32,000 bases of DNA from an uncultured archaeon (GTDB lineage Archaea > Iainarchaeota > Iainarchaeia > Iainarchaeales > 0-14-0-20-30-16), in the NCBI GenBank assembly GCA_964480435.1, contig CAYZSS010000004.1, forward strand, positions 1 to 32,000. Reading direction: 5' to 3'. The position numbers and the translations under genes were made by a program. The notes under the pieces are model-generated. The model did not search any database. It was not told the DNA's origin and saw only the letters and a list, made by a program, of their open reading frames with translations. Positions 1-22,989 of this stretch are shown here, one piece after another; positions within the stretch are counted from its first letter, which is position 1; each line of letters begins with the position of its first letter.

Positions 1-2436
1 TGTGATGATGGAAATAATAATGAAAATGATAACTGCTCTAATGACTGTAAATTGCTTGATAATTTTAAACCTGACTTATATGTCGGTCAAATTTATCATG
101 AAGTAATAAGCGAAGACTGTGTAAATACTTTTTATTTTAATATTTGTAATAAAGGGGACGGGAAACTAGTTTCTGATTTTGATGTTTCTGTTTTAGCAAA
201 TCAAAAGATTTTAGTAGTTCCGTACTTGGTAAGTATTTTTGGGGCTATTGATTCAGGTGCCTGCGTTTCTTTTAATTCAGCAATGCTTAATATTTTTGCA
301 TTTGGTATTGGGTTAGATGAAAATGTAATGGTAAATATAAATTTAGATTTTAATAATGTAATTTTAGAAGAAAAAGAAAATAATAACTCTAAATCTGGAG
401 AAATTTTTTCAGGTGATGGTTATTATAATAATGGGCAAAAGTGTAGCAAAACTTGTTATGATTCTGATAGCTCTATTGTAGGTTATGAACCAAATTCAGC
501 ATTACTTTTTGGTACTATTTATTTAGCGAATTTATTTGAAAACAGTTTATTTAACAGTAATGATTTCTGTGATGAATTTGGATTAATATTAACTGAACAA
601 ACCTGTCTTACTTCTGGTCTTTCTGATAAAAAAAATCTGGCTTGTTATCTGTTTTATCCTCCAAAGAAATGTGAAAATATGGCTTGTGCTGATTTAAATT
701 CAGAAGAAAGTCAAAGCTATTTAGCGTGTGATCAAAATGAAGGTAATAATAGCCCCTTATCATTTTCATCAATAAATTTTACTTACTATGATAATAAAAT
801 AACACAATACGCGTCTTATTGTGCTGATGACCGTTATTTGTCAAAATATAGTTGTAAAAATAATTTTATTCCTCAAAAGGATGAATATGATTGTTTAAAT
901 AATTATAATGGTTTGTGTCTTGAAGGCAGGTGTGTTCCCGGGGAACTTCAAACTAACTGTGAAGAATCAACAATAGACTATTTTCACAATGGTTATGTGG
1001 ATTTACAATATTTAATAGTTACTAGTCCAGTTACAAAAACAATATCTGATACTAGATCCGATATTTGTAATGGTGAACAAATATTAATGGAAGCCAGATG
1101 TGATTCTAACAATTTAACAGGTTATACTTATTTAGATTATAACTGTGCCCAAGATGGTGCATCCTGCTACAATGGTGCCTGTGTTTATCCTGATGAATCA
1201 TTAAAAGATTGTAATTTTTATGGCTCTGTTTTAATTGGTACAGGGTATGACCCTTTTACATATAAGTTCGGTTACTCAATTAATGCTTTTGGAGTATATA
1301 ACGGTTTTAAAGATGTGTGCCAAAATAACACTTTAATTGAGACAATGTGTACTGGAAATAATTTGAGTTTTTCACCTGTTGATTGTAAGGAATATGGTGA
1401 AAATTATATTTGTAAACAAGGGGCCTGCATCGAATCTGATGAAAATAATATTTCTTGTGAATATCTGTTTTCAGATATATTATATACAGATGCTTTAGGT
1501 AACCAAACCACTTATGATATAAATTCCTGCCTAAATGATTCTACTTTGATATCAAGATCTTGTGGATATAATGCAGATAATAAACCTGTTGTAGTTGAAA
1601 ATAATATTTTTTGTAATGGGGGACAAAAATGCGACTCTGGGGCCTGTATAACCCCCTATCAAGAATTTTGTGAAGATGATGATGGTTTAGATTATTTTAA
1701 TAAGGGCTCAATTTCTTGGGCTGGAATCGGTGATACCTATCTTTCAGGCGAATTTGATTTTTGTAGTAATAATCAATCTCTAACGGAAAGAACTTGTAAT
1801 GGCAACGTCCCTGATTATGAAACCATTGATTGTAATAGTTTTGGAGATAAGTATGTTTGTAGTAGTGGAAAGTGTTTAGAAGAAACAGGCCCTTACTGTG
1901 AGGAGCAAGGAAATACACTAACATATGAATCTTATTATGTATTATACCCTAAATATGATATTTGTGATGGTATGAGTTTTGCAGGGTATATAGCCACTTC
2001 TTATTCATCTATTCTTAGAGATTATTTTTGTACTAACTCTCTGGATTCTGCCTTTGATTTAGAATATGTATTATGTGATGGAATTTGTGGTTTTAAATTC
2101 GCAAACCAAGATGGAAATCTGATTTTTTTAGGCTCAGAATGCATTTTACAAAGTCAACTACCTAATAGTGATTATTATTATTATCCAATAGCGATTACTA
2201 GTCTTACTGCTTATCTGCAATATGTTGCGGAAAATGGGGAGATTTCTTTAGAAGATTATTTAATCCAGGAAGTGTATCCTGGTATGGCTTATTGGTTTAA
2301 CAAGGACTTGGCTGGAGAAGTTAATGTATGTATTATGCCTTTGTTAAGTAATGGTGTTGAACTTTCTGAACTAAAGACAGCAATACTAAACACAAAACCA
2401 GATTATATTGATGTTTGTAATCTGCCCGGAGATTAA
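1..2436 (+). CDS. Secreted cysteine-rich repeat surface protein (adhesin-like); 5' end lies outside the window
   Basis: Frame 1 is open from nt 1 (CDDGNNNENDNCSNDCKL...), so the TTG at 52 used by the ORF track is not a real start. Stop is TAA 2434-2436. nt 1-54 look like the tail of a CDDGN-type Cys-rich repeat. nt 67-390 resemble a CARDB-type beta-sandwich (PDLYV ... NNVILEEKENNNS ending). nt 553-2100 hold about 7 tandem Cys-rich modules. No C-terminal TM segment. Confidence 0.85.
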   Translation, partial: CDDGNNNENDNCSNDCKLLDNFKPDLYVGQIYHEVISEDCVNTFYFNICNKGDGKLVSDFDVSVLANQKILVVPYLVSIFGAIDSGACVSFNSAMLNIFAFGIGLDENVMVNINLDFNNVILEEKENNNSKSGEIFSGDGYYNNGQKCSKTCYDSDSSIVGYEPNSALLFGTIYLANLFENSLFNSNDFCDEFGLILTEQTCLTSGLSDKKNLACYLFYPPKKCENMACADLNSEESQSYLACDQNEGNNSPLSFSSINFTYYDNKITQYASYCADDRYLSKYSCKNNFIPQKDEYDCLNNYNGLCLEGRCVPGELQTNCEESTIDYFHNGYVDLQYLIVTSPVTKTISDTRSDICNGEQILMEARCDSNNLTGYTYLDYNCAQDGASCYNGACVYPDESLKDCNFYGSVLIGTGYDPFTYKFGYSINAFGVYNGFKDVCQNNTLIETMCTGNNLSFSPVDCKEYGENYICKQGACIESDENNISCEYLFSDILYTDALGNQTTYDINSCLNDSTLISRSCGYNADNKPVVVENNIFCNGGQKCDSGACITPYQEFCEDDDGLDYFNKGSISWAGIGDTYLSGEFDFCSNNQSLTERTCNGNVPDYETIDCNSFGDKYVCSSGKCLEETGPYCEEQGNTLTYESYYVLYPKYDICDGMSFAGYIATSYSSILRDYFCTNSLDSAFDLEYVLCDGICGFKFANQDGNLIFLGSECILQSQLPNSDYYYYPIAITSLTAYLQYVAENGEISLEDYLIQEVYPGMAYWFNKDLAGEVNVCIMPLLSNGVELSELKTAILNTKPDYIDVCNLPGD
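553..2100 (+). repeat. About 7 tandem Cys-rich protein modules (coding repeat, diverged at DNA level)
   Basis: The pattern D-x-C-x(4,5)-L-x-E-x2-C-x(8,15)-C-x(4,6)-C-x2-G-x-C recurs. Examples: SDICNGEQILMEARCDSNNLTGYTYLDYNCAQDGASCYNGACV; KDVCQNNTLIETMCTGNNLSFSPVDCKEYGENYICKQGACI; FDFCSNNQSLTERTCNGNVPDYETIDCNSFGDKYVCSSGKCL. Modules are separated by CE(E/D)xD...Y...G spacer segments. The first and last copies are degenerate. Confidence 0.75.
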
Positions 2437-2442
2437 AAAACA

Positions 2443-2450
2443 TTTATATT
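2443..2450 (+). promoter_or_regulatory. TATA-like box for the pilin-like operon (leaderless start at 2473)
   Basis: TTTATATT is centred about 26 nt upstream of ATG 2473. The same spacing recurs at five other first genes in this window. Confidence 0.5.
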
Positions 2451-2472
2451 GTTTTATCCCCTTTTATAAAAG

Positions 2473-3006
2473 ATGATACTAAAGAATTCTAAGGGACAGG
2501 AAAGTATAGTTTTTGAAGTTCTAATTGCAGTAATCCTTATGACTTTTGTTTTTATTATTGGGGGTTATGCAATGACCTCTTTAAACCAAACAAAATGTTC
2601 TAAAGAAGTAGATTCTACAATGAGTCAACTAGCGGTAGCAATAGAAAAAGCAGGATCAGTAAGTATTGGGTCCTATTATTACACTTTTTCAGAAAGCTCG
2701 TGTTTTAGAGACAATAATACAACCTATATTCTAAAAGAAGAAACTTCAGCGCTTTGCTCATCCTATTGCCCCGGATCGACCCAATGTTATTTATTAAAAT
2801 ATAATAATTCTAGTGACCCGGTAAGCACAGTGAGATATAAATGTGTAAATATCTCAAGATATGTGACTTTTAATGGGGGTAGCTGTACAAACCCTCCGGA
2901 TGCGGGCTATGAAACCTTGCCAGGATTAACTTTTTCATCGGGAAATTATATATTTGAATCTTACTCTCTGGGTAACCCTGAAATTTGTATTTATATAAAA
3001 AAGTGA
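2473..3006 (+). CDS. Type IV pilin-like protein (class III signal peptide), Cys-rich extracellular domain
   Basis: The N-terminus MILKNSKG|QESIVFEVLIAVILMTFVFIIGGYAM has basic residues, then Gly, then about 25 hydrophobic aa. Gln follows the Gly, as in EppA-type archaeal pilins. The remainder is N/S/T-rich with 8 Cys. Confidence 0.6.
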   Translation: MILKNSKGQESIVFEVLIAVILMTFVFIIGGYAMTSLNQTKCSKEVDSTMSQLAVAIEKAGSVSIGSYYYTFSESSCFRDNNTTYILKEETSALCSSYCPGSTQCYLLKYNNSSDPVSTVRYKCVNISRYVTFNGGSCTNPPDAGYETLPGLTFSSGNYIFESYSLGNPEICIYIKK

Positions 3007-3010
3007 TTTT

Positions 3011-3661
3011 ATGCTTGACTTTATAATATCTAAGATTGGAATGCTGCTTTTTGCACTGGCTGTGGCATCTGTCCTAATATTCTTTTCTTTAGGTATGAAA
3101 GAAATGTTTGTTGCTGAGCAAGGGCGAGAAATAGCAGCATCAATTATAACTCAAGCAAAAGGTCTGTCAGAAATTGATGCGCTTTGTACATCCTTAAGGC
3201 TGACTATTCCACGTTATATTGATGTTTATGGGTCAACAGAAACATTTTCTTTATCTGCAATAAATTATACTTTTAAAATTACAAAAGTACCTCTTGTCGA
3301 TGGAGAAACAAATACAATTGTTTTTAGCATGTATAAAAAACAAGGCAAAAAAGAAGGAAAACTTTTTGCAGTAAATAGTTTTAATACAACCTCAGAAATA
3401 AGATTTGTTGATTCAATATGGCAAATTATAGGCGATACTAATTTAGAGTGGGATCCAACCAGTGCACTTTCAAATGTAATTTATATTGTAAAAAATCAGG
3501 AAGCAGGGGAAGAAATTATTTATTTTGTTAGATGTGGATATGATAAGACAAAAGCACAACCATACCAATTATGTTATGATGCTCTTGATAGTTTAAAAAC
3601 TAATAAGGGGGTTTACTGTGTTCCAACAAAAAAAGACGAAACAGATACTACAGGGCCATAA
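3011..3661 (+). CDS. Pilin-like or N-terminally anchored extracellular protein
   Basis: ATG lies 4 nt after the previous stop. The N-terminus MLDFIISKIG|MLLFALAVASVLIFFSLGM is a single hydrophobic helix after K-I-G. The rest is soluble with 4 Cys. The pilin call rests only on the N-terminus and operon context. Confidence 0.45.
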   Translation: MLDFIISKIGMLLFALAVASVLIFFSLGMKEMFVAEQGREIAASIITQAKGLSEIDALCTSLRLTIPRYIDVYGSTETFSLSAINYTFKITKVPLVDGETNTIVFSMYKKQGKKEGKLFAVNSFNTTSEIRFVDSIWQIIGDTNLEWDPTSALSNVIYIVKNQEAGEEIIYFVRCGYDKTKAQPYQLCYDALDSLKTNKGVYCVPTKKDETDTTGP

Positions 3662-4361
3662 AAAACAAAAAGGGTTTATAGGAAGACACAAAGTTTCTGA
3701 AACGAAACTTTTGTCAGGCCCTAAAGCTTTTTGCGATAAGCAAAAAGGCTTTATAGGTGCAATTGGGGATGACCTTCCTAGCTTGGTGCCGATATTTTTT
3801 TCTCTGCTTATTTTCTTTGGGACGTTGTCATATGTTTTTATTACTTTAAATGAAAAAAATACTTATCTTGAAAAATATTTCGAATCAATTTCAGTATCTA
3901 AAGAAGCACTTGGCAGTAGTTTCTTTTCAGGATATGCTGAGTTTGAAGAGAGGGTGGCTAGTATCAATACTACTGAAAACTATATTGTGGGTTTAATTTA
4001 TGATCCAAATCTGCTTGGAAATGAAGGGGGCGGAACAGTAGATACTTTAGACCGCGAGAATTTCATAAAAAGTTGTCAGATTGGAAATAATGAAGAATAT
4101 ATTATTCCATATCTTAATCCAGATCCTTATATTGGGCCTGATGTTTACTATACTGGTAAAGGCGCAGATCAAGATCTTTGTGATTCCAATGTTGTGCATT
4201 TTTTTATTCCTAATGATGTTCAATATTTAAATAATCCTACTGATGTAATTGATGCAAAATTTATTTTTAAGAATCAAACCCCTTTCATATATTTTTATCC
4301 TGTTGCTCTGTCTACTAGTGAAGGTGTTATAACTGCATACTTGTATGTGCTGGTTTGGTGA
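3618..4361 (+). CDS. Pilin-like or N-terminally anchored extracellular protein; start codon ambiguous
   Basis: The stop at 4359-4361 is firm. There is no in-frame ATG near the 5' end. Candidate starts are GTG 3618 (44-nt overlap with the upstream gene), TTG 3711, and TTG 3783 or GTG 3786. From TTG 3711 the N-terminus reads LSGPKAFCDKQKG|FIGAIGDDLPSLVPIFFSLLIFFGTLSYVFITL, which is class III-like. From 3783 it starts directly with the hydrophobic helix. nt 3662-3782 look non-coding (hairpins, duplicated TATA-like 17-mer). Confidence 0.55.
   Translation: MFQQKKTKQILQGHKKQKGFIGRHKVSETKLLSGPKAFCDKQKGFIGAIGDDLPSLVPIFFSLLIFFGTLSYVFITLNEKNTYLEKYFESISVSKEALGSSFFSGYAEFEERVASINTTENYIVGLIYDPNLLGNEGGGTVDTLDRENFIKSCQIGNNEEYIIPYLNPDPYIGPDVYYTGKGADQDLCDSNVVHFFIPNDVQYLNNPTDVIDAKFIFKNQTPFIYFYPVALSTSEGVITAYLYVLVW
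3666..3757 (+). promoter_or_regulatory. Duplicated BRE/TATA-like 17-mer flanking two hairpins at the gene 2 / gene 3 junction
   Basis: Direct repeat CAAAAAGGGTTTATAGG (3666-3682) and CAAAAAGGCTTTATAGG (3741-3757), 1 mismatch, 75 nt apart. Hairpin 1: 3685-3697 pairs with 3704-3715 (12 bp, one bulged C at 3689, loop TGAAAC). Hairpin 2: 3725-3734 pairs with 3740-3750 (10 bp, one bulged G, loop GATAA). Confidence 0.45.
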
Positions 4362-4365
4362 ATTT

Positions 4366-5268
4366 ATGAAAAATAAAAAAGTTTTTTCAAAAGGAGTATC
4401 AAGTAGCATAGCCACGAAGATACGGTCTTTTTGGGCCACTCACCCTTTTCTTAAAAGGGCAGAAGGGCAGGCAGCAGTAACAGATGCATTATTTTTCTTA
4501 ACAATTATTTCAGTTGTTAGTGTTCTTCTTTTTACAAGTGCAATGAGTTATGGAAAAGGGTTAATGGAAAGTAGTACAGAATATTATGAAAATACTTTTA
4601 CTGTTTCAGCACTGAAAACTCTTTATGCTGTTGCTGTTCCTTTGGAACCAGATAAATATGACATCTTGGATAGTAACTATAATGATAATTTATTTACTGT
4701 TTTGAAAAAAGATTACTTTATTTCTTCAGTAAATGCAGCGGCAGATCCTGCACAGGAAGCTATGCTTGATATAAATACTCAAAAAAAGTTAATGGAATCT
4801 TTAAAAAAAATTATGGCTCCTCTTGATAAAAGTAAAAATTATTTATTTTATATAAACATTCCTGAAGATGTGTCTGGAAAACAAAAAATGATATTTGTTG
4901 GCTTAGTTACTTTTAGAGATAAATATGACTCTTATACTGGCCCAAACCCAAAAACAACTTATCTTTGTGGGCCTAATCCTGGAAAACCTAGTACCTTAGC
5001 ACTTGATGATATACAACTATATTTGAAAAAACATAGTTTAGGGCAAAGATTTGCAGAAGGAAGGCTGAGTTTATTAGTAAAAAGTGGTGTAGACGATAAA
5101 TTAATTATTGCACATACTGGTCTTATTTCATGGACTGCCTCTCCTGATTTTGATCCTAATGATAATCCATATGATGAGAAAATAGGCGAATTATTAAATG
5201 AAAGATGTTGTAAATATGTTGATGTAAGTGATGCAATAGATTGTAGTAGTGTTTCTCAACCAGACTAA
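4366..5268 (+). CDS. Type IV pilin-like protein with long leader (class III signal-like)
   Basis: GGTGA (4357-4361) sits 4 nt upstream of ATG 4366. The alternative ATG 4345 would overlap the upstream gene. The N-terminal region reads ...HPFLKRAEG|QAAVTDALFFLTIISVVSVLLFTSAM (Gly-Gln followed by a hydrophobic helix). The leader of about 37 aa is unusually long. The C-terminal domain is soluble and ends with a Cys-containing tail. Confidence 0.5.
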   Translation: MKNKKVFSKGVSSSIATKIRSFWATHPFLKRAEGQAAVTDALFFLTIISVVSVLLFTSAMSYGKGLMESSTEYYENTFTVSALKTLYAVAVPLEPDKYDILDSNYNDNLFTVLKKDYFISSVNAAADPAQEAMLDINTQKKLMESLKKIMAPLDKSKNYLFYINIPEDVSGKQKMIFVGLVTFRDKYDSYTGPNPKTTYLCGPNPGKPSTLALDDIQLYLKKHSLGQRFAEGRLSLLVKSGVDDKLIIAHTGLISWTASPDFDPNDNPYDEKIGELLNERCCKYVDVSDAIDCSSVSQPD

Positions 5269-5327: not shown

Positions 5328-5364
5328 GTTTCAGGAGCTGAAACAAATTCCTTTTTTGGAATTT
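5328..5364. terminator. Tandem hairpins with a T6 run between convergent genes (bidirectional terminator candidate)
   Basis: GTTTCAG (5328-5334) / GAG / CTGAAAC (5338-5344) is followed directly by AAATTCC (5345-5351) / TTTTTT / GGAATTT (5358-5364). The second hairpin overlaps the stop codon of the minus-strand gene. Confidence 0.5.
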
Positions 5365-6436
5365 ATTTCTTCTCAACTTTCTTTTTTTCAGTAGGAAGAT
5401 CAAGATTTAAGTTTAAGTCAAGATCTTGAAGATCGGCATTGTTTATTTTTCCTTTTCCACCAAAGTTAGATAAATCTAAATTTAAATCAAACCCCGCACT
5501 TGTTGGAGTAGTTGTTTTTTCTTCAGTATTTTCTTTTTTTATTTTTTCTTCAGCTGGTTTTTCTTCATCTTTTGGAGCCATCATTTTTTTAACTTCTTCA
5601 TCTCTGGCAAGTTGAGCAAAAATATTATCTACTACCTGGTTTATTTCTTCTCTTTTGTCAGGCTCTCTGTTGTGTCTATCTCTGAATCTTCCAACCTCTT
5701 CTTTAGTAAGTCTCTCAATTTCTTCTCTTGGTTTATTTAATTCGGTTTTATCTTTTACTTGAGTATATATTACATCAACAATATTATCTTGCACAGTCCC
5801 GGATGAATTGGATTTTTCAGATTCTATTGATTTTAATCTTTCTCTGTAATGTCTTGAACCATCATCAGTTGTATTTTGTACACTGCTACTTGCTTCTTCT
5901 GGTTTATTTGTATCTCTATAAAATCTTCTAAGTCTTCTGGGAACTTGAGTAATATCTTTGTCTTTATTATTTTGAGTATTTTCTGGTTTTTTTTCAGTTA
6001 TAGCAGGTATGTTGGTTGTAGGTTGTACAGTTTTTCCTATTTCAGGGACAACAGGTTTTGTTTCTATATTATCTGGTTTTTGTTGCTCTTTAGCTACTTC
6101 GACTTCTGTTGTTTTTGGCACCTGTTCCTTCATTTTCATAATCAAATTATCAACCTCACTAAAATCATTTTCTTCTTTTTTTTCAGAAATTGCATCCAGA
6201 TTTGCTGCTGAGTCTTCCACTTCTTCTTTTATAGTCATTTTTTCTGGCTCTTTTGTAATTTCTTTTGGGTTATTTTTTTTACTATAAAGGATATTAACTA
6301 CTTCTTTTGCTATTTTTTGTGAGTATCCCTCAGAAGTAACGGCATTAATAATTTCTTCTTTAGAATAAATATCCTTGTATTTTCCAAGGAGTTCAATTAA
6401 TTTATCTATTTCTTTTGAGACCACGTTAACACCCAA
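5363..6436 (-). CDS. Lys/Glu-rich low-complexity (probably disordered) protein with a small helical N-terminal domain
   Basis: 357-codon ORF. The three plus-strand ORFs overlapping it are F/L/S-rich antisense artefacts. The N-terminal 55 aa (KEIDKLIELLGKYKDIYSKEEIINAVTSEGYSQKIAKEVVNILY) look like a 3-helix bundle. The middle is E/K/T/P-rich. The C-terminus has DLNLDL-type repeats (FDLNLDLSNF, DLQDLDLNLNLDLP) and a KKK tail. The start is non-ATG: TTG 6436 or GTG 6424. Confidence 0.7.
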   Translation of the reverse strand: MGVNVVSKEIDKLIELLGKYKDIYSKEEIINAVTSEGYSQKIAKEVVNILYSKKNNPKEITKEPEKMTIKEEVEDSAANLDAISEKKEENDFSEVDNLIMKMKEQVPKTTEVEVAKEQQKPDNIETKPVVPEIGKTVQPTTNIPAITEKKPENTQNNKDKDITQVPRRLRRFYRDTNKPEEASSSVQNTTDDGSRHYRERLKSIESEKSNSSGTVQDNIVDVIYTQVKDKTELNKPREEIERLTKEEVGRFRDRHNREPDKREEINQVVDNIFAQLARDEEVKKMMAPKDEEKPAEEKIKKENTEEKTTTPTSAGFDLNLDLSNFGGKGKINNADLQDLDLNLNLDLPTEKKKVEKK

Positions 6437-6479: not shown

Positions 6480-6506
6480 AATATTTGTGTCTTTATATTG
6501 GTATTT

Positions 6507-6998
6507 ATGGCAATTACATTTTCAGGGGTATTTTTTTCTGTTTTATATTGGCTAATTTCTGCGGCTGTGCTGTTTTTTATTATTTTATTTTTAGGCCATT
6601 TTTACCAACCTTTTAAAAAGAAGGTAAACATTACTGAAGTTTATTCATTGTTTTTATTTTCTGCAATAGTAGATTATATCCTTTTCATAATAATCTATTT
6701 ACTTCCTTTGATTTTTGGAGTTAGGTCTGATTTGGTGGGGCTCTATGATGTGTGGTACATGTATGTTTATGTTGTTTTTATAATTCTATTAAAATTGTTG
6801 CTTTATTCAGTACTGTTTACTTTGATAATACAACCAGTAATACTTTTAAGCTTATTTTTGTATGAAAAGTTTATTAAAAAGAATAGCGAAATTCTTTCAA
6901 AATTTTATGTTTCTGTAATAATTTCGTTTTTGGTAACTTTTATTTTATTTTTGTTTCCTTGGATTCTTGGGGGATTTATTGCAATGGTATTTTTTTAG
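6507..6998 (+). CDS. Small polytopic membrane protein (about 5 TM segments), function unknown
   Basis: The protein is almost entirely hydrophobic (F/I/L/V-rich) with short basic loops (QPFKKKVN, EKFIKKNSE). I prefer ATG 6507 over the TTG 6498 of the track. Its TAG stop (6996-6998) lies inside the SD of the next gene. Confidence 0.75.
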   Translation: MAITFSGVFFSVLYWLISAAVLFFIILFLGHFYQPFKKKVNITEVYSLFLFSAIVDYILFIIIYLLPLIFGVRSDLVGLYDVWYMYVYVVFIILLKLLLYSVLFTLIIQPVILLSLFLYEKFIKKNSEILSKFYVSVIISFLVTFILFLFPWILGGFIAMVFF

Positions 6999-7007
6999 GT
7001 GACTGCT

Positions 7008-10000
7008 ATGGATAGAAAACTTTTGTTCATGTATTTTATTATTTTTAATATGCTTTTTTCTACTATGGCTTTTGCATATAGTCCCACAACTGTAGATAGT
7101 AGTGTGGCCTGTAGAAATGAAAAATTAAGCCCTGAAGAAATAAACATTCTTTGGGATAACTATCTCAGAACAGGGTTTACTCCAACAAATATTTATTCAG
7201 GAACCCCTGAAGAACTGAAAGCAGAAGAAAAAACAAAAATAAAAGAAGAACCAAAAGCTGGTGAAGAAGGGTTAATACCAAGTATAATGAATATGGCTGG
7301 TGATAAGGCCATTGCAACTGTTGATATAGATACTGGAAAAAAAGTATCCGAAGATGCTCTTTGTTTTACTAAAGTAATTTCTGGTGATTATGCCTATGGT
7401 GGGATTTTATCAGATTCCCTAAGAGTAGGGCGATGTACAGAAGATACTCCTGGTTGTTCTGTATCAGGAGAGGGTTTACAATTTAAAAATACTGAAGGTG
7501 CATTAAAAATTTACTGGGAAGGAGTAAAAGCTATTATTGGTCTTGGTGAGGAAAAAACACAGCCAGGCTCTTATCTTGCAGGTCCAGTAAATACTGAACA
7601 ACTTAAAGAACAAGAAGAAGTAGTATCTGCGTTTGGTACGTCTGAAGCTGTTGAAAGTGCAGATGGTACTGCTGCAGAAAGTGATTTGGCCAGCACAGGT
7701 GCCGCGAGTAATGAATTAGAATTAATGAAAGTAAATCACGAAGCACAACCTAATGCAATGAGTAGCCTTTGGGTTGATGATATGTCTGCAGAGTTTTTGA
7801 TGTTATGTAATAATCAAGATTCAGGAAACAGATGTAGAGTATTATTGTATTCTTTTTTTGATAAATATTACAATTCTTATTATTCTGGTGGTTTAGTGGT
7901 AGTTGCGGGTGGCCCGGTTGCGTGGGGTGCAACAAAAAAACTTTTTGGAGGTATTTCTGCATTTAAATATGGTGGAAAAATAACTACTGGAATAAAAAAA
8001 GTGACGGATCCAGTAAAAGAGTTTATGACCAATACCTGGTATAAGCTAACTGAAAAAGATTTCAAATATTTTTCATCTAATGTGTTAGGAAAAACACAGG
8101 CAGCACTAAAGCACGGTGGAATTGGTGATGGATTAAAAGTTCTTGGAGATAATGTTTATGAAGCAAATACAAGCAAGGCTATTGCTGCTGCTCAAAAAGA
8201 GCTGGTTCCTAAACTGACGACTACTGAGTCAAAAGAAGCAATAGGGGCAGTTTTAGAAGCAAGAGCATCAGCAGCAGAATATGGTAAGGGATATTTAAAT
8301 AGTCTTAAGAATGCAGCCCCTGAATATAAATTAAAGGCTGCAATGCAAGCAGGAGAAAATGCTCCTGCTCTTTTAGGGGCGGAAATGAACAAAGCATTTT
8401 TAGAAAAAAATTATGCTGGTTGGATGTATGATTCTGCTGGCGCAAAGGCTATTAGTTCTGTACCCATTACTGATAAAGTTGCAGCAGAAGGTTTTTTAAA
8501 AGGAAATTTAGACCCTGCAAAAATATATAAAATGGTCCCTGGGCAAAGTCAAGGAAACCATGTAATTGGCAATTTAAAAAATTTTATGCAAAACCACGCG
8601 GGCTCAGATTTCATAGTAGATATTGGTGGTAATCCAGTAATACTTAATGCTGGTACTGTTGATGGTATAGTAGCACAAGCAGGAAAAGAAGGTATTACTG
8701 AACTGGAAATAAAGGCTGGTAGTAGATTAAATATTGATTTTGCTGAGTTTGGGGGTTATGATGGTTTTAGCAAAAAGTTTGCTAAAGATTATTTTGATGA
8801 TGTTTCAAAAAAATATAGTGTTGCCGCAACAAATTATCAAGCAGTAACAGAGGCCTTACAAAGTGCAAAGAAAATCCCTACAAGAAGCCCAAATGCAATG
8901 AAATTCATGATGAATGTTATGAATGGAAAAGGTGGAGCAGCGGGGAGTTTTATATTAAAATATGAAACAATACCAGCATTATATTGGCTTGCAAAAACTA
9001 GTGATTCAAGTCCAATAAAAGCATATATGATAAAAGACCAAGATATTACAAATGTAAAAGCATACACAGGGCCTGACGCAATTTATGCAGGTGCTTATAT
9101 TGATGTTTTCGCAAAAGAAGGTAGTGATAACGGGGATCTATTTAACAAAGCCCTGAAATATACTTTGTTCCCTTTAGATTTATTTAGTAAAGTAGCTCCA
9201 ACAGCAACAGGGTATCTTAAATCATTTTTCGGTCACCAATTTAGGGATACTCCGGGGGATGTAATTATTTATAATGAGGCCTTAAAGTGTACAACTGCCT
9301 CTTGTTTTATTTCATTAACTGGTAGTAAAAAAATAGTAAATGCAGGTGAAGTAAATTTAAGGACAGATAGTTTGCTTATGAGTGGAAAATCATTACAAGG
9401 GACAAAAAATTATTTTGTAGAATTCCCTGATTCTGATGTTTACAAAAAAACAGGTCTTACTTTAGGGGCCTTTGTTCATGGTATGAATGTAGTGGGAAAG
9501 CAGGGGGAAATAAACCTAGCATCTGCTGCAGCAAAGAAGGAAGATTGTTTAACTAAGTCAAAAGAATTAACTATTGCTGGGGTGCCTGTGGGAAGTATAA
9601 TGGCTTCAGATGCTGATCCTGCAAAACTTGCGATGCCAATAGGTATTTTTGAGAATACAATTGGGTTTGTGCTTCCTGGTCTTCCGGGATTGGGAGTTGG
9701 TATTGCTGTAAGTCTACTAATACAGGATGATATTCAGGAACAAATTGGAGAATGTGTAGACACTATTGATGGGTATTATGTAACTTATTCTTTAATACCG
9801 TATAAACCTGAAGAAGACAATGGTATTATGTCAAAAATTAAAGAAACAGTTTCAGAAGGAAAAGAGCAAAAACCGTCTATGCTTACCGATACAGCTATAG
9901 GGAAAGTTGCTGATAAAATAAAAGACCAATTTAGTTCAATAATACAAGATAAAACACATGAAGGTATTCAGATAAACTTGGATACAAAAGGAAAAACAAG

Positions 10001-11384
10001 CCAATCTGTATCTCTTGAGGATGTATTTTTGATTTGGGAAGGGCCAAATGCAAGCCAAACAAATCTGAAATACAAGGACACCGGAAAACTTGCATTAGTA
10101 GATAAGGACGGAAATGCAGCAATTATGGATTTTGATAAAGGTACTTTTACTATTAATGGAGAAACTATAAGTAATCCAGATATTGTTAGATTAATGGAAA
10201 AAGATAATCTTGGGCCATTTATTGCAATGCCTGTGGTAGTAACTGTAATTCCTGCAATAAGTTCGGGAGATATGTTCGAAGCAAAGACAAATGGGGACTT
10301 TGTTGTAAAAGACCCTGGGATGCTAGATTGTATAAGGCAAGGAGTATTTGAACAAACTGGGCAGGAAATGACTGGTAGTTCTTTGTTTGAGCATATGGGA
10401 CCTGTGACCCAGATGTTATTGGAAAATGGGCAAACTGTAGCTCCAACTTTAATAGGTTCAAGCAGTTATTTTGAAATTTTGGGAGGATCTACGGGTCGTG
10501 TTACTTTGTATAATTCAACGCTTACTGTTACAAAAGATAGATCAATAATTGTTAGGAATGCAAAAGAAACTAATCAATATGATAAAGTGGTGGGAATTGC
10601 ATTTGAAAAAGGGTCAATACTTTACAAACCAGAAACAAATGAATTTATTATGTGGATAAAGATTATGGCAGAAATGGATGGAAAGTTTGTTTCTAGTATG
10701 ACTCCAACACACACAACACAAATAAATGAAGAAACTGGTTGTGAAGAAGATGCTTTTGATTTGAAATTAGCTCCTTTGCAAGGGGATGTTACTGCAGCAG
10801 AGGATGTAGACAAGATGAATACCGCTTTAGAAAAAGCAGGGCCATTCCAATACTTTAAAACTCCAGAGTACACTATTATGTTTTATGCGCAGATGGTGGA
10901 TGGTGTTTGTAAAAGATTTATGAAAGTGATGGATAAAGACGGCAATGTAATAAGCGATTCAGAGATAACAAGTATAACAGCAACTCCTGATGGTTATGAA
11001 ATTACAACAGCAGATGGTAAAACACACGATATAGGCTTTTCTGCTGAAAATGGGCAGCCTATGCTGACCTTTGATGGACAAAAATCTCCTTTAACAATAG
11101 CACAAGGAAAAGATGGTGCTTTCTTTTATGACCCTAGTACAGGAAAATGGTATGTTGATAATGCCCAATTACTGCCTATAGATGATGACTTTAAGAGATT
11201 AGGGTCAAACACAGTGGGGAATTCTAATACTCCTGGAGGTAACCCAATAGAAGGTGGATTAAACCCATCAAGTGGTTCAGGCTCAAGTTGGGATATTCCA
11301 TTAACTGATGATTGGTTATTATACGGCTTAGTAATGTTATTTAGTGGAATGTTTGTGTATTTGATTTCAAGAAAGGACGAATAA
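7008..11384 (+). CDS. 1458-aa orphan envelope protein: Sec signal peptide, two internal Gly-rich hydrophobic segments, C-terminal TM anchor
   Basis: AGGTGA (6997-7002) sits 5 nt upstream of ATG 7008. The signal peptide is MDRKLLFMYFIIFNMLFSTMAFA|YS. Internal hydrophobic stretches are GGLVVVAGGPVAWGA (nt 7887-7931) and IGFVLPGLPGLGVGIAVSLLI (nt 9660-9723). The C-terminus is WLLYGLVMLFSGMFVYLISRKDE. Composition is A/G/K-rich, unlike the N/S/T-rich beta-type surface proteins elsewhere in the window. I recognise no domain. Confidence 0.8.
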   Translation: MDRKLLFMYFIIFNMLFSTMAFAYSPTTVDSSVACRNEKLSPEEINILWDNYLRTGFTPTNIYSGTPEELKAEEKTKIKEEPKAGEEGLIPSIMNMAGDKAIATVDIDTGKKVSEDALCFTKVISGDYAYGGILSDSLRVGRCTEDTPGCSVSGEGLQFKNTEGALKIYWEGVKAIIGLGEEKTQPGSYLAGPVNTEQLKEQEEVVSAFGTSEAVESADGTAAESDLASTGAASNELELMKVNHEAQPNAMSSLWVDDMSAEFLMLCNNQDSGNRCRVLLYSFFDKYYNSYYSGGLVVVAGGPVAWGATKKLFGGISAFKYGGKITTGIKKVTDPVKEFMTNTWYKLTEKDFKYFSSNVLGKTQAALKHGGIGDGLKVLGDNVYEANTSKAIAAAQKELVPKLTTTESKEAIGAVLEARASAAEYGKGYLNSLKNAAPEYKLKAAMQAGENAPALLGAEMNKAFLEKNYAGWMYDSAGAKAISSVPITDKVAAEGFLKGNLDPAKIYKMVPGQSQGNHVIGNLKNFMQNHAGSDFIVDIGGNPVILNAGTVDGIVAQAGKEGITELEIKAGSRLNIDFAEFGGYDGFSKKFAKDYFDDVSKKYSVAATNYQAVTEALQSAKKIPTRSPNAMKFMMNVMNGKGGAAGSFILKYETIPALYWLAKTSDSSPIKAYMIKDQDITNVKAYTGPDAIYAGAYIDVFAKEGSDNGDLFNKALKYTLFPLDLFSKVAPTATGYLKSFFGHQFRDTPGDVIIYNEALKCTTASCFISLTGSKKIVNAGEVNLRTDSLLMSGKSLQGTKNYFVEFPDSDVYKKTGLTLGAFVHGMNVVGKQGEINLASAAAKKEDCLTKSKELTIAGVPVGSIMASDADPAKLAMPIGIFENTIGFVLPGLPGLGVGIAVSLLIQDDIQEQIGECVDTIDGYYVTYSLIPYKPEEDNGIMSKIKETVSEGKEQKPSMLTDTAIGKVADKIKDQFSSIIQDKTHEGIQINLDTKGKTSQSVSLEDVFLIWEGPNASQTNLKYKDTGKLALVDKDGNAAIMDFDKGTFTINGETISNPDIVRLMEKDNLGPFIAMPVVVTVIPAISSGDMFEAKTNGDFVVKDPGMLDCIRQGVFEQTGQEMTGSSLFEHMGPVTQMLLENGQTVAPTLIGSSSYFEILGGSTGRVTLYNSTLTVTKDRSIIVRNAKETNQYDKVVGIAFEKGSILYKPETNEFIMWIKIMAEMDGKFVSSMTPTHTTQINEETGCEEDAFDLKLAPLQGDVTAAEDVDKMNTALEKAGPFQYFKTPEYTIMFYAQMVDGVCKRFMKVMDKDGNVISDSEITSITATPDGYEITTADGKTHDIGFSAENGQPMLTFDGQKSPLTIAQGKDGAFFYDPSTGKWYVDNAQLLPIDDDFKRLGSNTVGNSNTPGGNPIEGGLNPSSGSGSSWDIPLTDDWLLYGLVMLFSGMFVYLISRKDE

Positions 11385-15955: not shown

Positions 15956-16492
15956 ATGCAATTCTTTAAGAAAATAAAAAACTTGGCATACAATAAAAAG
16001 AAAAATAATTTTGTCTTGACTTTATCTTCTAAACTCATTTTTTTCTTGGGTTTGTTCCTAATTTCTTTTGTTCTATTATATGTTTTATTTGTTTATTCTG
16101 GACTTTACAATAATCTTTCCGGATTTTTTGCACAAACCGTTTACAACCATTTTTCTTATAACTCTGATATTACTCTTGCCGGAACAACTATTGATTTTAA
16201 GGCTTTTGAAATAAATATTACTTCTGTTTGTTCAGGGGTTTATGAATTAATTGTATTTCTTGCATTGATTTTTGCCTGCTTTGAAATTAAACTGTGGAAA
16301 CGTGTGGTAGGGGCATTATTTTATTTTGTTTTCTTTGTTGTTTTTAATTTTATTAGAATGATAACTGTCATTTATTCTTTTGCATATTTTGATTTATTTT
16401 CTGTTGATTTGTTGCACACTCTGTTATTTAAATTTGGTTTTTTTATTATTACTTTTTTATTCTTTTTATATTTTTTAATTATTGCGGACTAA
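15956..16492 (+). CDS. Archaeosortase/exosortase-family protein, minimal (178 aa)
   Basis: Polytopic membrane protein with the family's three signature residues in order and context: ITSVCSGVYEL (Cys in CSG), NFIRMITV (Arg) and DLLHTLLFKFG (His). AAGTGA lies 4 nt upstream of the ATG. Confidence 0.75.
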   Translation: MQFFKKIKNLAYNKKKNNFVLTLSSKLIFFLGLFLISFVLLYVLFVYSGLYNNLSGFFAQTVYNHFSYNSDITLAGTTIDFKAFEINITSVCSGVYELIVFLALIFACFEIKLWKRVVGALFYFVFFVVFNFIRMITVIYSFAYFDLFSVDLLHTLLFKFGFFIITFLFFLYFLIIAD

Positions 16493-19713: not shown

Positions 19714-20988
19714 CTATTCATACCTTAATGCTTCTACTGGTTTAAGTTTAGATGCTGATATTGCTGGTAAAAGGCCTGCAATAATACCTATTAAAGTAGA
19801 AATAATTATTGCATAAATAATTAAGTCTAAACTTACTGTACCACTAAATGTCATTCTGCCTAGGTTGATATATCCTGCCATTAAACTAGATACCATCCAA
19901 CCCAATATAATTCCAATAAAGCCCCCCAGGAGCCCAAATAATCCTGACTCTAGTAAAAATAGTTTTATTATTTCAAAATTTGTTGCCCCCAGTGCTTTTA
20001 GTATCCCTATTTCTTTTGTTTTTTCTAAAACTGAAGTGAACATGCTGTTCGCTACTCCGATGGCTCCAACAATTAAAGATATAAGTGCGATACCTCCTAA
20101 AAATAAACTAAGGGTATCTGTCATAGTACTAATTCTTTCTTGCATTGCCTTTGTAGAACTAATTGAAAAATCATATTCTTTCTTTCCATACACTCCTCTG
20201 CTTATTGCAAGTGATTTTGTTAAGGTTGTTATTATTGAATCAATAATATCTGCATCTGAAACTTGTGCTAATATTCTTGCATATTCATTTTTATTTGTCT
20301 CTGTACTTATTAACCAAAATCCACTGTTTGTGGCATACACAGCATTAGATTTTGTTCCATCATCAGTAGTTATTCCTACTACATTAAAAATGCTTTCTTC
20401 TAGTGTTATTTGTTGTCCTATTGTGATAGGTTTTTTGAAAGTATTATTTGCTAAGTTATAAGAAATAATTATATTTTTTGTATCTGTGTTTGTTAAAAAT
20501 CTGCCTTGGTCTAAGGCTACATCATAAAGCATAGAAAAATATTGCGGGTCTACTCCAGTAACAGATACTGTTAGTTTTTCTGAACCACTTTGCATTTCAA
20601 ACCTTTCTGAATTTTGACCCGCAGCATATAATATGTCTGGGTTTCCCCTGATTATAGTTAGATCTTTATTTGTGAGGATTGGGTCTTCTTCGTCATCAGC
20701 TAATACTTTACTACTCCCTATGTCCATTTCTCCTCCTGGACCTTCTGGTTTACCAGTGCCCATAAAATCTGCTTTGGAAAATCCGGGTGAGAGGGTAATT
20801 ATGTCCGCTCCAAATTTTGACATTTGCATATTCATGCTTTCTGTTGCATTTTGACTAATAGATACAATAGCAATTACTGCTGCAACCCCAATAACAATTC
20901 CTAAAAGGGTAAGCCAGGATCGCAGCTTTCGATTTGTTATGTTATTCCATGCTAATTTTATTATATCTATTAATCTCATAAGTGTCAC
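19714..20988 (-). CDS. ABC transporter permease, MacB/FtsX family
   Basis: N-terminus LAWNNITNRKLRSWLTLLGIVIGVAAVIAIVSI, a large extracytoplasmic domain, then a C-terminal FtsX-type 3-TM bundle (EIGILKALGATNFEIIKLFLLESG...). The start is GTG 20988 or, better supported by an upstream AGTGA, ATG 20979. Confidence 0.9.
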   Translation of the reverse strand: MTLMRLIDIIKLAWNNITNRKLRSWLTLLGIVIGVAAVIAIVSISQNATESMNMQMSKFGADIITLSPGFSKADFMGTGKPEGPGGEMDIGSSKVLADDEEDPILTNKDLTIIRGNPDILYAAGQNSERFEMQSGSEKLTVSVTGVDPQYFSMLYDVALDQGRFLTNTDTKNIIISYNLANNTFKKPITIGQQITLEESIFNVVGITTDDGTKSNAVYATNSGFWLISTETNKNEYARILAQVSDADIIDSIITTLTKSLAISRGVYGKKEYDFSISSTKAMQERISTMTDTLSLFLGGIALISLIVGAIGVANSMFTSVLEKTKEIGILKALGATNFEIIKLFLLESGLFGLLGGFIGIILGWMVSSLMAGYINLGRMTFSGTVSLDLIIYAIIISTLIGIIAGLLPAISASKLKPVEALRYE

Positions 20989-20992
20989 TTAC

Positions 20993-22276
20993 CTAATTTT
21001 TATTTTTCATTTTTTTGTATTTTTTGAATCCAAAATATGCACCAACAAGCGCTGCTAAAATTATGATGTACCAATAGATCGATAGTCCACTGTTTTTTGT
21101 TGTAGCCATTGCACCAAATTTTGTGGCCGTGCTTTTTGCATCAGAAAGTAAAGTTACCTCTTTTGTAATTATTTGTCTTTTTCCAGTAGTATCTGTGTAA
21201 TGTATTTCAATAGTAATTGCGTCACTTATTGTGTTGTGAGGAGCATTAATATCTAAAGGAATTTGCATTTTATCAGTTGGTGTTTTTCCCGTAGTAGTTG
21301 GTTTTTGAAAATTCATATCTACCGACATAGTTTCAAAGCTCGCAATTGTAAAGTCTCCTTTTTCAATTGTGCCTAATATTGCTGAGTCTGCTCCTGCTGT
21401 TTTTATGTTTTGTTGTTTAGGTATTTTTATTATTGTTGATTGTGCATCATTCATACCAATATTTGCAATACTTAAAGTAATCTGGGTGCTTGATGCTTTT
21501 TCAGCACTTATATCAAAATCGGTTTCTCCTCCAACAATAACTCCGACAGTTGATTGTTCACTGCTTGTTCCTGCGCTATCCTGAAAGCTTATTGTTATAT
21601 CTAATGGGTAAACACCTGGAACAATATCTTTGTCCGTTGCAATTGGAAAAGTAATGACTGTTGTTTTATCTTGATCAATGAAGTCTATGTGTTTTGTGTT
21701 ATTTGTCCCTAAAGGTAAAATTAAATTGCTTGATTCAGCCCAATTTAAATCAATGTTTGATACTTTTTGACCACTAATGTTGGTAATTGCAAAGTTTAAA
21801 TCAGTAATGCTTCCGGGGTTAATTATATTTGGAAAAACTTCTAAATCAAAATTTGTGTTTTTGCTTGAAACTGTAATAGTTATATTTTGTTGCTCTGAAA
21901 CTATTTCGCCATCTCTTTCATAATTTATATTTAAAAAAACTGGGTAATATCCTTCTAATGTTGTGTCCTTTGCTTTAATTTTAAATGCAAGAGTTTGTTC
22001 AGCATTTGGGCTAAGAGAAGCTAGTGTATCCTCAATATCCAATGGTTCAAAATTTGTACCTGCATCTAAGGTTGCTTTTAAATTAGTAATGTAAAAAATT
22101 GACCCTGCGTCTTTTACTGTAACTCCTATATTAACAATATCACCTGGCGCAATAGTTGCAGGTAGTATGTTTGTGCCCGTAATTTCTAATAAGTAATATG
22201 GCTCTGAAACTGCAAATCCATAACTTGAAATTACAACTGTTATTAACAATAATAAAAATATATTTTTGAAATTCAT
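20993..22276 (-). CDS. CARDB/COG1361-like surface protein with signal peptide and C-terminal TM anchor
   Basis: Signal peptide MNFKNIFLLLLITVVISSYGFA. Beta-sandwich signatures repeat (APGDIVNIGVTVKDAGS, NPGSITDLNFAITNISG, VPGVYPLDITISF). C-terminus LSIYWYIIILAALVGAYFGFKKYKKMKNKN. GGAGG lies 7 nt upstream of the ATG. The gene is embedded between the ABC ATPase and permease genes. Confidence 0.75.
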   Translation of the reverse strand: MNFKNIFLLLLITVVISSYGFAVSEPYYLLEITGTNILPATIAPGDIVNIGVTVKDAGSIFYITNLKATLDAGTNFEPLDIEDTLASLSPNAEQTLAFKIKAKDTTLEGYYPVFLNINYERDGEIVSEQQNITITVSSKNTNFDLEVFPNIINPGSITDLNFAITNISGQKVSNIDLNWAESSNLILPLGTNNTKHIDFIDQDKTTVITFPIATDKDIVPGVYPLDITISFQDSAGTSSEQSTVGVIVGGETDFDISAEKASSTQITLSIANIGMNDAQSTIIKIPKQQNIKTAGADSAILGTIEKGDFTIASFETMSVDMNFQKPTTTGKTPTDKMQIPLDINAPHNTISDAITIEIHYTDTTGKRQIITKEVTLLSDAKSTATKFGAMATTKNSGLSIYWYIIILAALVGAYFGFKKYKKMKNKN

Positions 22277-22278
22277 GT

Positions 22279-22989
22279 CTATGCCTCCTTAAAATATTTT
22301 TTTGTATTTCCATCAAAAGTTATTTGTCCATCTTTAAGATGTATTGTTCTGTTTGTCCATTTTGCGATTTCTTTTTCGTGTGTTACTATAATAACTGTTT
22401 TTTTGTGTTTTTTGTTTAAGTCTGTTAATAATGCAATTATTTCTTGGCTAGATTTGCTGTCAAGATTTCCTGTTGGCTCGTCTGCGAAAATAATCTGTGG
22501 ATCTGAAACTAATGCTCTTGCAATTGCAACTCTTTGTCTTTCCCCCCCTGATAATTCTTTTGGCTTGTGTTTATATCTGTGATTTAATCCTACTTTTGAA
22601 ATTATGTCCTTTACTTTGTTATTAATTTCTGCACTGTCATATTCGTGTATTCTTAAAGGAAGGGCTATGTTTTCAAATACTGATAGAGTTGGATACAAAT
22701 TAAAAGTCTGAAATACAAAGCCAATGGTTTTTCCTCTTAGACGTGATAATTTTGATTCAGATAATTTAGTAATATTCTTTCCAGCTAAAATAATGTCTCC
22801 ACTGGTGGGCTTGTCTAATGCACTCATAATTGATAAAAGCGTGGATTTTCCAGATCCTGATGCTCCTACAATAGAAATAAATTCTTCTGAGTTTATTTTT
22901 AGACTTACGTTTTTAACAACAGGTATTGAACCGGCCCCAATGTTATACGTTTTTACAATGTTTTTTAATTCTAATACAGGAATATCCAT
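22279..22989 (-). CDS. ABC transporter ATP-binding protein (MacB/LolD-like)
   Basis: Walker A GASGSGKST, signature LSGGERQRVAIARAL, Walker B IIFADEPTGNLD, H-loop IVTHE. The TATA-like ATATATAT (23011-23018) is centred about 26 nt upstream of the ATG, implying a leaderless start. Confidence 0.95.
   Translation of the reverse strand: MDIPVLELKNIVKTYNIGAGSIPVVKNVSLKINSEEFISIVGASGSGKSTLLSIMSALDKPTSGDIILAGKNITKLSESKLSRLRGKTIGFVFQTFNLYPTLSVFENIALPLRIHEYDSAEINNKVKDIISKVGLNHRYKHKPKELSGGERQRVAIARALVSDPQIIFADEPTGNLDSKSSQEIIALLTDLNKKHKKTVIIVTHEKEIAKWTNRTIHLKDGQITFDGNTKKYFKEA

Follow-up and report, generated by a model that had tools for sequence, protein, structure and literature searches.

Archaeal pilus loci of the 'system 2' kind are known to encode one platform protein and a long ATPase, together with pilins of which some have a class III signal peptide and others do not (10.64898/2026.04.22.720090). 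In Methanococcus maripaludis, the pilus loci are split, with minor-pilin operons located far from the ATPase, and the minor pilins are essential and carry Gln at +1 (PMC3875500). Regarding the DPANN archaea, 'dark-matter' islands have been described beside FlaI/TadC, whose unannotated small secreted proteins were generally predicted to be diverse pilins (PMC6393860). A life in attachment to hosts is assumed for these archaea, and the molecules making the contact are mostly unannotated 'hypothetical' proteins. The present analysis concerns four small genes, labelled P1, P2, P3 and P4, within positions 2473-5268 of a 32,000-nt stretch of DNA from an uncultured archaeon (contig CAYZSS010000004.1; this whole stretch is hereafter the window), where they follow a gene for a Cys-rich surface protein. 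The source lineage is DPANN, kingdom Nanobdellati (Iainarchaeota-like), and the window is low in GC (~31%) and contains archaeal housekeeping genes (L15e, an RNase P subunit and PAC2). It is likely that P1-P4 represent a fixed cassette of accessory minor-pilin-like subunits, part of a type IV pilus system that is confined to DPANN of the Iainarchaeota/Micrarchaeota type.

Comparison with described pilus systems

The likeness to system 2, or euryarchaeal clade 2, exemplified by the PilB4-type locus of Haloferax volcanii (PMC4858521; 10.64898/2026.04.22.720090), lies in the layout seen in relatives of the window. As in system 2, these relatives have a 760-aa ATPase with a long N-terminal extension, a single large platform and then several pilins, with and without class III signals (P2 being the one without), as well as a large S-layer-like or adhesin-like protein nearby. 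Unlike in system 2, the pilin families are missed by Pfam and NCBIfam, and in the clade of the window the cassette stands apart from the genes for the ATPase and platform.

The Epd/EppA system of M. maripaludis (PMC3875500) is approached in other respects, namely the Gln at +1 after Lys-Gly, the presence of several minor pilins beside a separately encoded major pilin, the distribution of the pilus genes over several loci and the genome of a relative with an EppA-like peptidase and PF04021 pilins. In addition, EpdA-C offer a parallel for the priming or capping role proposed below for P1-P4. Unlike the Epd pilins, P1 and P4 are much larger and do not have the DUF361 QxSxE pattern (no PF04021 match), and the Epd-like locus of the relative, which holds the homologue of the Cys-rich protein, is a separate system.

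The bacterial minor-pilin sets (GspH/I/J/K, FimU-PilV/W/X with PilY1, ComGD-GG) share with the cassette the four accessory genes 3' of an ATPase-platform-major-pilin operon, one large and possibly exposed subunit (here P4) and one member with a non-standard N-terminus. Unlike these sets, the cassette is accompanied by no PilY1-type protein, and neither Pfam, PDB family-profile nor Foldseek searches detected sequence or fold homology to GspH/I/J/K, PilV/W/X or ComGD-GG; a tip-complex role would thus be an analogy only. As for the pilin islands of DPANN archaea, that prediction (PMC6393860) was a general one, made without defining the four families, the order in which they are fixed, the motifs at their cleavage sites or the cassette as a stand-alone unit. 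No earlier description of a fixed four-family cassette was found in the literature searched.

The cassette and its linkage to pilus machinery

The first loci were found through homologues of P4, and the hidden Markov models (HMMs) built from these annotated a wider set of 44 loci, which a P4 motif scan had yielded with one genome per species. The related loci come from 'Candidatus Iainarchaeum', Diapherotrites, archaeon GW2011_AR10 and 'Micrarchaeota' metagenome-assembled genomes (MAGs). P1, P2, P3 and P4 are all present and colinear in 43/43 related loci (Iainarchaeota, AR10 and 'Micrarchaeota'); consequently, the association of the four families is not due to chance.

In many relatives, the operon runs in the order ATPase, platform, PilA-like pilins and then P1-P4 at its 3' end. 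A T2SSE ATPase and a TadC-like platform are placed directly upstream of the cassette in 12 of the 19 loci with at least 6.5 kb of upstream DNA available, and PilA-like genes, usually two of 145-195 aa following the platform, are directly upstream in 18 of the 31 loci with at least 1.5 kb. The ATPase (~760 aa) matches T2SSE with an E-value of 1.6e-16 over a core of ~295-650; its best matches in the PDB are GspE of A. fulgidus (1e-30), CpaF and FlaI, and those in NCBIfam are FlaI and TadA, the match to ComGA being weak. The platform is encoded by a single gene of ~780 aa, and a match to nearly the full T2SSF profile, at the same position, was obtained for nine of ten members tested (E 3e-5 to 5e-3, just short of the cut-off). 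The sequence-only reading of the window, made without database searches, had taken the four genes to be pilus-related, and their place as the distal genes of an ATPase-platform-PilA operon in relatives agrees with it, with the further support of the processing sites described below for P1, P3 and P4, and of context for P2.

At the loci consisting of the cassette alone, the genes upstream encode a seryl-tRNA synthetase and a Cas4-like nuclease, and no peptidase is present there. The closest sequenced relative possesses a Peptidase_A24 plus Arc_PepC protein, which in NCBIfam matches EppA best (E 5e-15, short of the equivalog cut-off).

Within the window, the positions, lengths and tight packing that had been read for the four genes were borne out (Table 1). 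P1 and P2 are separated by a gap of 4 nt, and P3 and P4 by a gap of 4 nt if P4 starts at 4366, or overlap by 17 nt if it starts at 4345. The short spacer before P1 carries a TATA-like element of its own, as had been proposed, the element being read directly from the letters, and its placement fits a putative leaderless archaeal promoter for P1.

Table 1. Coordinates of the cassette and of neighbouring features in the window (a slash marks a predicted cleavage site; ORF, open reading frame).
Feature	Coordinates	Strand	Description
Cys-rich surface protein, C-terminal 811 aa	1..2436	+	ORF open at nt 1; DUF4215-like, CARDB, repeated Cys modules
Spacer	2437..2472	+	36 nt; TATA-like TTTATAT at 2443-2449, ~27 nt before the ATG at 2473
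P1	2473..3006	+	177 aa; pilin-like with class III signal, SKG/QESIVFEVLIAVILM
P1, predicted N-terminal helix with charges	2473-2560
P2	3011..3661	+	216 aa; pilin-like or accessory; hydrophobic N-terminal helix from Met1
P2, predicted N-terminal helix with charges	3011-3090
P3	3618..4361	+	247 aa from GTG, or 216 aa from TTG at 3711; class III-type, KG/FIGAIGDDLPSLVPIFF
P3, predicted N-terminal helix with charges	3740-3830
P4	4345..5268	+	307 aa, or 300 aa from 4366; pilin-like with class III signal, RAEG/QAAVTDALFFL
P4, predicted N-terminal helix with charges	4465-4540
Lys/Glu-rich (KE) putative cytoplasmic protein	5363..6436	-	Divergent from P4
Small polytopic membrane protein	6498..6998	+	HMM family; no Pfam match
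Secreted protein	6999..11384	+	~1,460 aa; Sec-type signal, C-terminal anchor; no Pfam or PDB match
Exosortase/archaeosortase-family protein	15956..16492	+	TIGR04178, E 2.7e-9, 37 bits against a cut-off of 23

Class III signal sites

P1, P4 and the PilA-like proteins show a prepilin-like class III site, defined as [KR][GA] followed by a helix, P3 has it in a variant form and P2 has none. Among the P1 orthologues (n = 41), position -2 is Lys or Arg in 40, -1 is Gly or Ala in all 41 and +1 is Gln in all 41, followed by QESAPFELLIAVILM. The P4 orthologues (n = 42) have Lys or Arg at -2 in 38, Gly (32) or Ala (10) at -1 in every case and Gln at +1 likewise, QAAVTDAL being invariant in 42/42, and in the PilA-like proteins (n = 34) the corresponding counts are 32, 34 and 32, the mature sequence continuing as Q[AE]FxVFKLLIAA. 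The leaders are not conserved and range from ~4 to more than 30 residues (4 to 34 aa in P4), and the conservation starts exactly at +1 in P1, P3, P4 and the PilA-like proteins. This is the pattern expected of prepilin-type processing. Gln at +1 after Gly agrees with the EppA substrates of M. maripaludis (PMC3875500), and the EppA-type Gln that had been pointed out from the window holds for P1 and P4 across their orthologues.

In P3 (n = 43), Lys or Arg occupies -2 in 40 orthologues, Gly or Ala occupies -1 in 43 (Gly in 42) and +1 is Phe or Tyr in 42. Residues G3, G6, D7, D8, P10, S11 and L12 are invariant, forming a GxxGDDxPSL motif that precedes the membrane helix, and in the window copy the ten residues FIGAIGDDLP lie between the Gly and the hydrophobic segment. 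The P3 leader of the window (3618-3760) also contains a tandem copy of the cleavage motif (KKQKGFIG...DKQKGFIG), giving two possible cut sites, and a similar leader duplication is seen in a close relative (L015, 3750-3960).

The N-terminus of P2 reads M[LI][G/E/D]F[IT]LSK[IL]NLLILV, with Gly (17), Glu (16) or Asp (9) before the Phe; Ser7-Lys8 and four Cys are invariant among the P2 orthologues. P2 falls outside the basic-Gly-hydrophobic pattern because it is hydrophobic from residue 2 and because the Gly of the 'SKIG' cut formerly assigned to it is Asn in 37/42 orthologues, which leaves that cut without support. On these alignments, P2 is a pilin-like protein without a class III (prepilin) cleavage site. 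The description of all four N-termini as basic residues, Gly and a hydrophobic stretch is thus retained for P1 and P4, in the variant form for P3, and given up for P2. When all ORFs of the window were scanned for further N-termini with [KR][GA] plus a hydrophobic segment, no major-pilin candidate was obtained.

Charged residues are conserved in the N-terminal helices, with Lys at +7 in 22/34 PilA-like proteins, Lys8 in 42/42 P2, Glu at +2 in 39/41 and at +7 in 37/41 P1, Asp at +6 in 42/42 P4 and Asp at +7/+8 in 43/43 P3. Such conserved buried charges suggest specific helix pairing or salt bridges between the subunits.

Subunit relations and predicted folds

P1 is, as far as profile comparison tells, paralogous to the PilA-like proteins that are candidate major pilins in relatives, to which hhalign relates it with 97% probability (E 1.5e-11); the relation between PilA and P4 is marginal (E 2e-4). 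Neither PF04021 Class_IIIsignal, PF07790 Pilin_N nor the NCBIfam pilins matched P1-P4 or the 34 PilA-like relatives at E-values up to 1, and a weak match of P4 to DUF7318 (E 0.17) was discarded.

In the AlphaFold2 model of P1 (predicted local distance difference test, pLDDT, 79.2), a helix at residues 6-62 is followed by seven strands, and in that of P4 (pLDDT 74.7; predicted template modelling score 0.69) a helix at residues 32-88 is followed by a mixed alpha/beta head. In both, the helix of ~57 residues spans ~-3 to +54 relative to the predicted cut, and the predicted structures show the 'lollipop' layout of pilins, with a long N-terminal helix and a beta-sheet.

P4 is the largest of the four subunits, and its family comprises 229 cluster representatives among 1.84 billion proteins. 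In other lineages, the position of P4 is filled by an enlarged version (434-623 aa), which differs by an internal insert and by an extension, rich in Cys in part, at the C-terminus; it is found at the cassette position in two loci (L059, 163-1953; L060, 2998-4869), further versions being P0093, P0103, P0110 and P0133. Such an architecture would be expected of a modular, exposed pilin.

Proposed role of the cassette

In the favoured explanation, P1, P3 and P4 would be cut by an EppA/PibD-type peptidase, and their mature forms would join with the uncleaved P2 in the membrane through the N-terminal helices, the Lys of P2 and PilA pairing with the Asp or Glu of P1, P3 and P4. The resulting P1-P4 complex would prime or cap a filament composed mainly of PilA-like subunits, with P4 as the probable exposed subunit, because of the extra C-terminal modules that it bears in other lineages. 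In the clade of the window, the cassette would now be a stand-alone operon, so that genes for the ATPase, platform, major pilin and peptidase must lie in other parts of the genome, and the Cys-rich gene would most likely be the final gene in another pilus locus, of the Epd-like type, standing beside the cassette only in the lineage of the window.

Several results weigh against this explanation. No ATPase, platform, major pilin or peptidase is encoded within the window, which confirms what had been noted earlier for the ATPase, the platform and the prepilin peptidase. The FlaFind pattern, applied as a regular expression of our own ([KRDE][GA][ALIFQMVED][ILMVTAS]x3), matches P4 alone (EGQAAV), missing P1 at +2 (Glu), P3 at +3 (Gly) and P2, which is without a site. 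Pfam, NCBIfam and PDB profile searches returned no meaningful match for the five pilin-like families (P1-P4 and PilA-like), P2 and P3 have no homology to other families detectable by hhalign, and Foldseek searches of the PDB with the P1 and P4 models found no pilin. A comparison of the models with pilin folds was favourable as to the long helix and the following beta-sheet in P1 and P4 and unfavourable as to database matches. Moreover, the cassette is linked more tightly to a downstream block, consisting of the KE protein, the small membrane protein and a secreted protein of ~1,500 aa (37/37 and 27/30 loci), than to the ATPase (12/19), and the cleavage, assembly and location of P1-P4 are all inferred.

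The downstream block and a possible envelope role

The KE protein was detected in every locus with enough downstream DNA, and the family of the small membrane protein comprises 37 ORFs across the loci, preceding the ~1,500-aa protein in most of them. The latter, counted in loci with at least 4 kb of downstream DNA, is the large neighbour truly syntenic with the cassette. It is a candidate S-layer-like protein or archaeosortase substrate. In relatives, its C-terminus has LLNLPS[LMI]PE followed by a transmembrane segment and a basic tail, and the window copy is degenerate at this point (WDIPLTDD). The archaeosortase gene is divergent from the pilus ATPase and adjoins it in five loci (L010, L021, L023, L037 and L053), and this enzyme and the ~1,500-aa protein are likely a sortase/substrate pair flanking the pilus operon.

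An identification of the ~1,500-aa protein with the S-layer protein of Micrarchaeum (101 kDa, TIGR01564/TIGR01567) was rejected, as those domains were not found here. As for the KE protein, its N-terminus is conserved as PRRL[KR]RF[HY]R, and in some orthologues the sequence closes with a zinc ribbon (double CxxC), which is missing from the window copy.

Because the synteny with this block is tighter than that with the ATPase, the role of P1-P4 could be related to the envelope and not to the tip of a filament. The four proteins would then be envelope-anchoring or envelope-crossing parts, similar to FlaF and FlaG, that link the base of the pilus to the ~1,500-aa S-layer-like protein or open a passage through it. 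P2 resembles FlaF and FlaG in being without a cleavage site, the archaeosortase gene and the sortase-type C-terminal signal flank the operon, and S-layer-like proteins in pilus loci have been proposed to prime the wall for the filament (10.64898/2026.04.22.720090). However, the prepilin-type sites of P1, P3 and P4 are absent from FlaF and FlaG, P1 is paralogous to the PilA-like pilins, and the external modules of P4 elsewhere suggest exposure instead of a basal position, so that an envelope role is considered unlikely.

The Cys-rich protein upstream

The protein encoded upstream of P1 contains 51 Cys in its 811 aa, including four Cys-rich repeat units of ~80 aa each, and its CARDB match barely clears the cut-off (22.9 bits, with 22.7 required; E 1e-4). 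Its sole homologue among 5.8 billion proteins is P0176, of 1,038 aa, with the Pfam domains DUF4215 and CARDB (29% identity, 100% coverage). Residue 1 of the window copy corresponds to residue 195 of P0176 and the alignment proceeds to both C-termini (195-1038), so ~195 N-terminal residues are missing from the window copy, and the full length is probably ~1,000 aa. Thus, of the 'giant Cys-rich CARDB protein' read earlier, the abundance of Cys and, narrowly, the CARDB domain are retained, and the protein is better called large than giant.

Since five independent assemblies (L001-L005) share the junction between the Cys-rich gene and P1, this junction is real, yet it is a lineage-specific juxtaposition. 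All five assemblies end within ~80 nt of one point inside the Cys-rich gene, in its DUF4215-like region. A near-identical repeat may have caused this common break at nt 1, because the relative has a tandem paralogue sharing the DUF4215-like region. Protein-based and exact-DNA scans of metagenome contigs provided no same-strain DNA upstream of nt 1.

The N-terminus of P0176, MNVSSKG/FISVFFVLLVLV, would fit a class III signal, and the protein comes from the MAG STB_43, which also contains, on a different contig, the closest complete cassette locus (L014). The locus of P0176 (L058; contig JAQTTP010000001.1, 828-13117 and 19006-22750) encodes four KG/Q pilins of ~60 aa, three of them matching PF04021 (two below the curated cut-off), an A24 plus Arc_PepC peptidase with EppA as best match, several larger KG/Q proteins, and P0176 preceded by its 798-aa paralogue, a tandem of Cys-rich DUF4215/CARDB proteins that both have class III-like N-termini. 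A Cdc48 gene lies on the opposite strand and, ~6 kb further, a 537-aa T2SSE ATPase and two T2SSF (TadC) genes are found; the whole represents a full pilus locus of the Epd-like type, in a MAG from Iainarchaeota. The Cys-rich protein is probably pilus-associated and, judging from relatives, would belong with a second, Epd-like pilus system.

The sequence-only reading had joined the Cys-rich gene and P1-P4 in a five-gene module, in which four minor pilins present the Cys-rich adhesin at the tip, as FimU/PilVWX do with PilY1. The separation of 36 nt on the same strand, repeated in the five assemblies, and the class III-like N-terminus of P0176 within a pilus locus speak for it, as does a slight resemblance of the Cys-rich end of one enlarged P4 (P0135) to one adhesin repeat in a single pairwise BLAST comparison (E 4e-4 uncorrected and 0.014 after composition correction). 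However, this resemblance is not significant and was missed by the HMM of the four repeat units; a module common to the enlarged P4 C-terminus and the repeats is accordingly treated as unproven. Moreover, none of the 44 related loci, annotated by HMMs, has a homologue of the Cys-rich protein beside the cassette, so that the five-gene arrangement is not conserved, and in the three closest cassette loci (L011, L014 and L015) a Cdc48 ATPase occupies the position upstream of P1. In STB_43 the homologue is on another contig, in an Epd-like locus with its own pilin sets, and the spacer in the window has its own TATA-like element. By Pfam, the protein has neither a PilY1/PilC beta-propeller nor a DUF2341 domain, showing CARDB (and DUF4215 in P0176) only, so the parallel with PilY1 did not survive either. 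Such a module is thus distinctly unlikely, and it provides a caution, as the tight 36-nt junction resembled an adhesin-pilin operon and is yet a lineage-specific juxtaposition.

Returning to the cassette as a set of accessory minor pilins, a bolder extension may be considered, doubtful as it is: P1-P4 would be a counterpart in function, and not by descent, of the bacterial priming/tip complex of four minor pilins, conserved across Iainarchaeota/Micrarchaeota, P4 would be a modular tip subunit able to carry adhesive domains, and in the lineage of the window the cassette would be physically coupled to the pilin-signal Cys-rich adhesin taken from the Epd-like system. If this coupling were true, adhesins would be exchangeable between the pilus systems of an episymbiont, giving a handle on host attachment.

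Possible roles in secretion, DNA uptake or membrane anchoring

By analogy with comGA-GG, whose order is mirrored here, the genes could instead belong to a short pseudopilus for secretion or DNA uptake and not to an adhesive pilus. The gene order in relatives is that of the ComG layout, and DPANN archaea depend on external nucleotides. However, none of the loci showed a gene resembling ComEC/ComEA or a secretin, the ATPase, with its weak match to ComGA, belongs to the FlaI/TadA/afGspE type, and the comparison is one of analogy only, making a pseudopilus very improbable. Finally, that P1-P4 are ordinary signal-anchored membrane or secreted proteins, resembling pilins by chance, would accord with the lack of a family or fold match to known pilins and with the fit of one in four to the FlaFind pattern, but is hardly credible and close to refuted by synteny, given the linkage to a T2SSE ATPase and a TadC-like platform in 12 genomes, the invariant [KR][GA]/Q after variable leaders in ~40 orthologues per family and the homology of P1 to the PilA-like genes.

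Annotation and other genes of the window

For five pilin-like families that public models do not recognise, the motifs, the gene order, the link to an ATPase and platform and the large surface-protein neighbour are now defined, and motifs and gene order together serve as an annotation rule for ~230 protein clusters. The most promising targets for experiments are P4, the ~1,500-aa protein and the Cys-rich protein.

Further along the window, the minus strand carries genes of a MacB/FtsX-type ATP-binding cassette (ABC) transporter, a 427-aa secreted protein and a similar 351-aa protein (19714-22989 and 24926-25981). The transporter consists of a permease and an ATPase, the latter called from its Walker A sequence, and is encoded with the 427-aa protein, which is C-terminally anchored; no Pfam family was found for this protein or for the nearby 351-aa one. 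At 26109-32000, an ORF running off the 3' end of the window encodes 1,963 aa or more of a surface protein, in which a membrane helix at the N-terminus is accompanied by domains of the CarboxypepD_reg, Big_1 and bMG3-like types.

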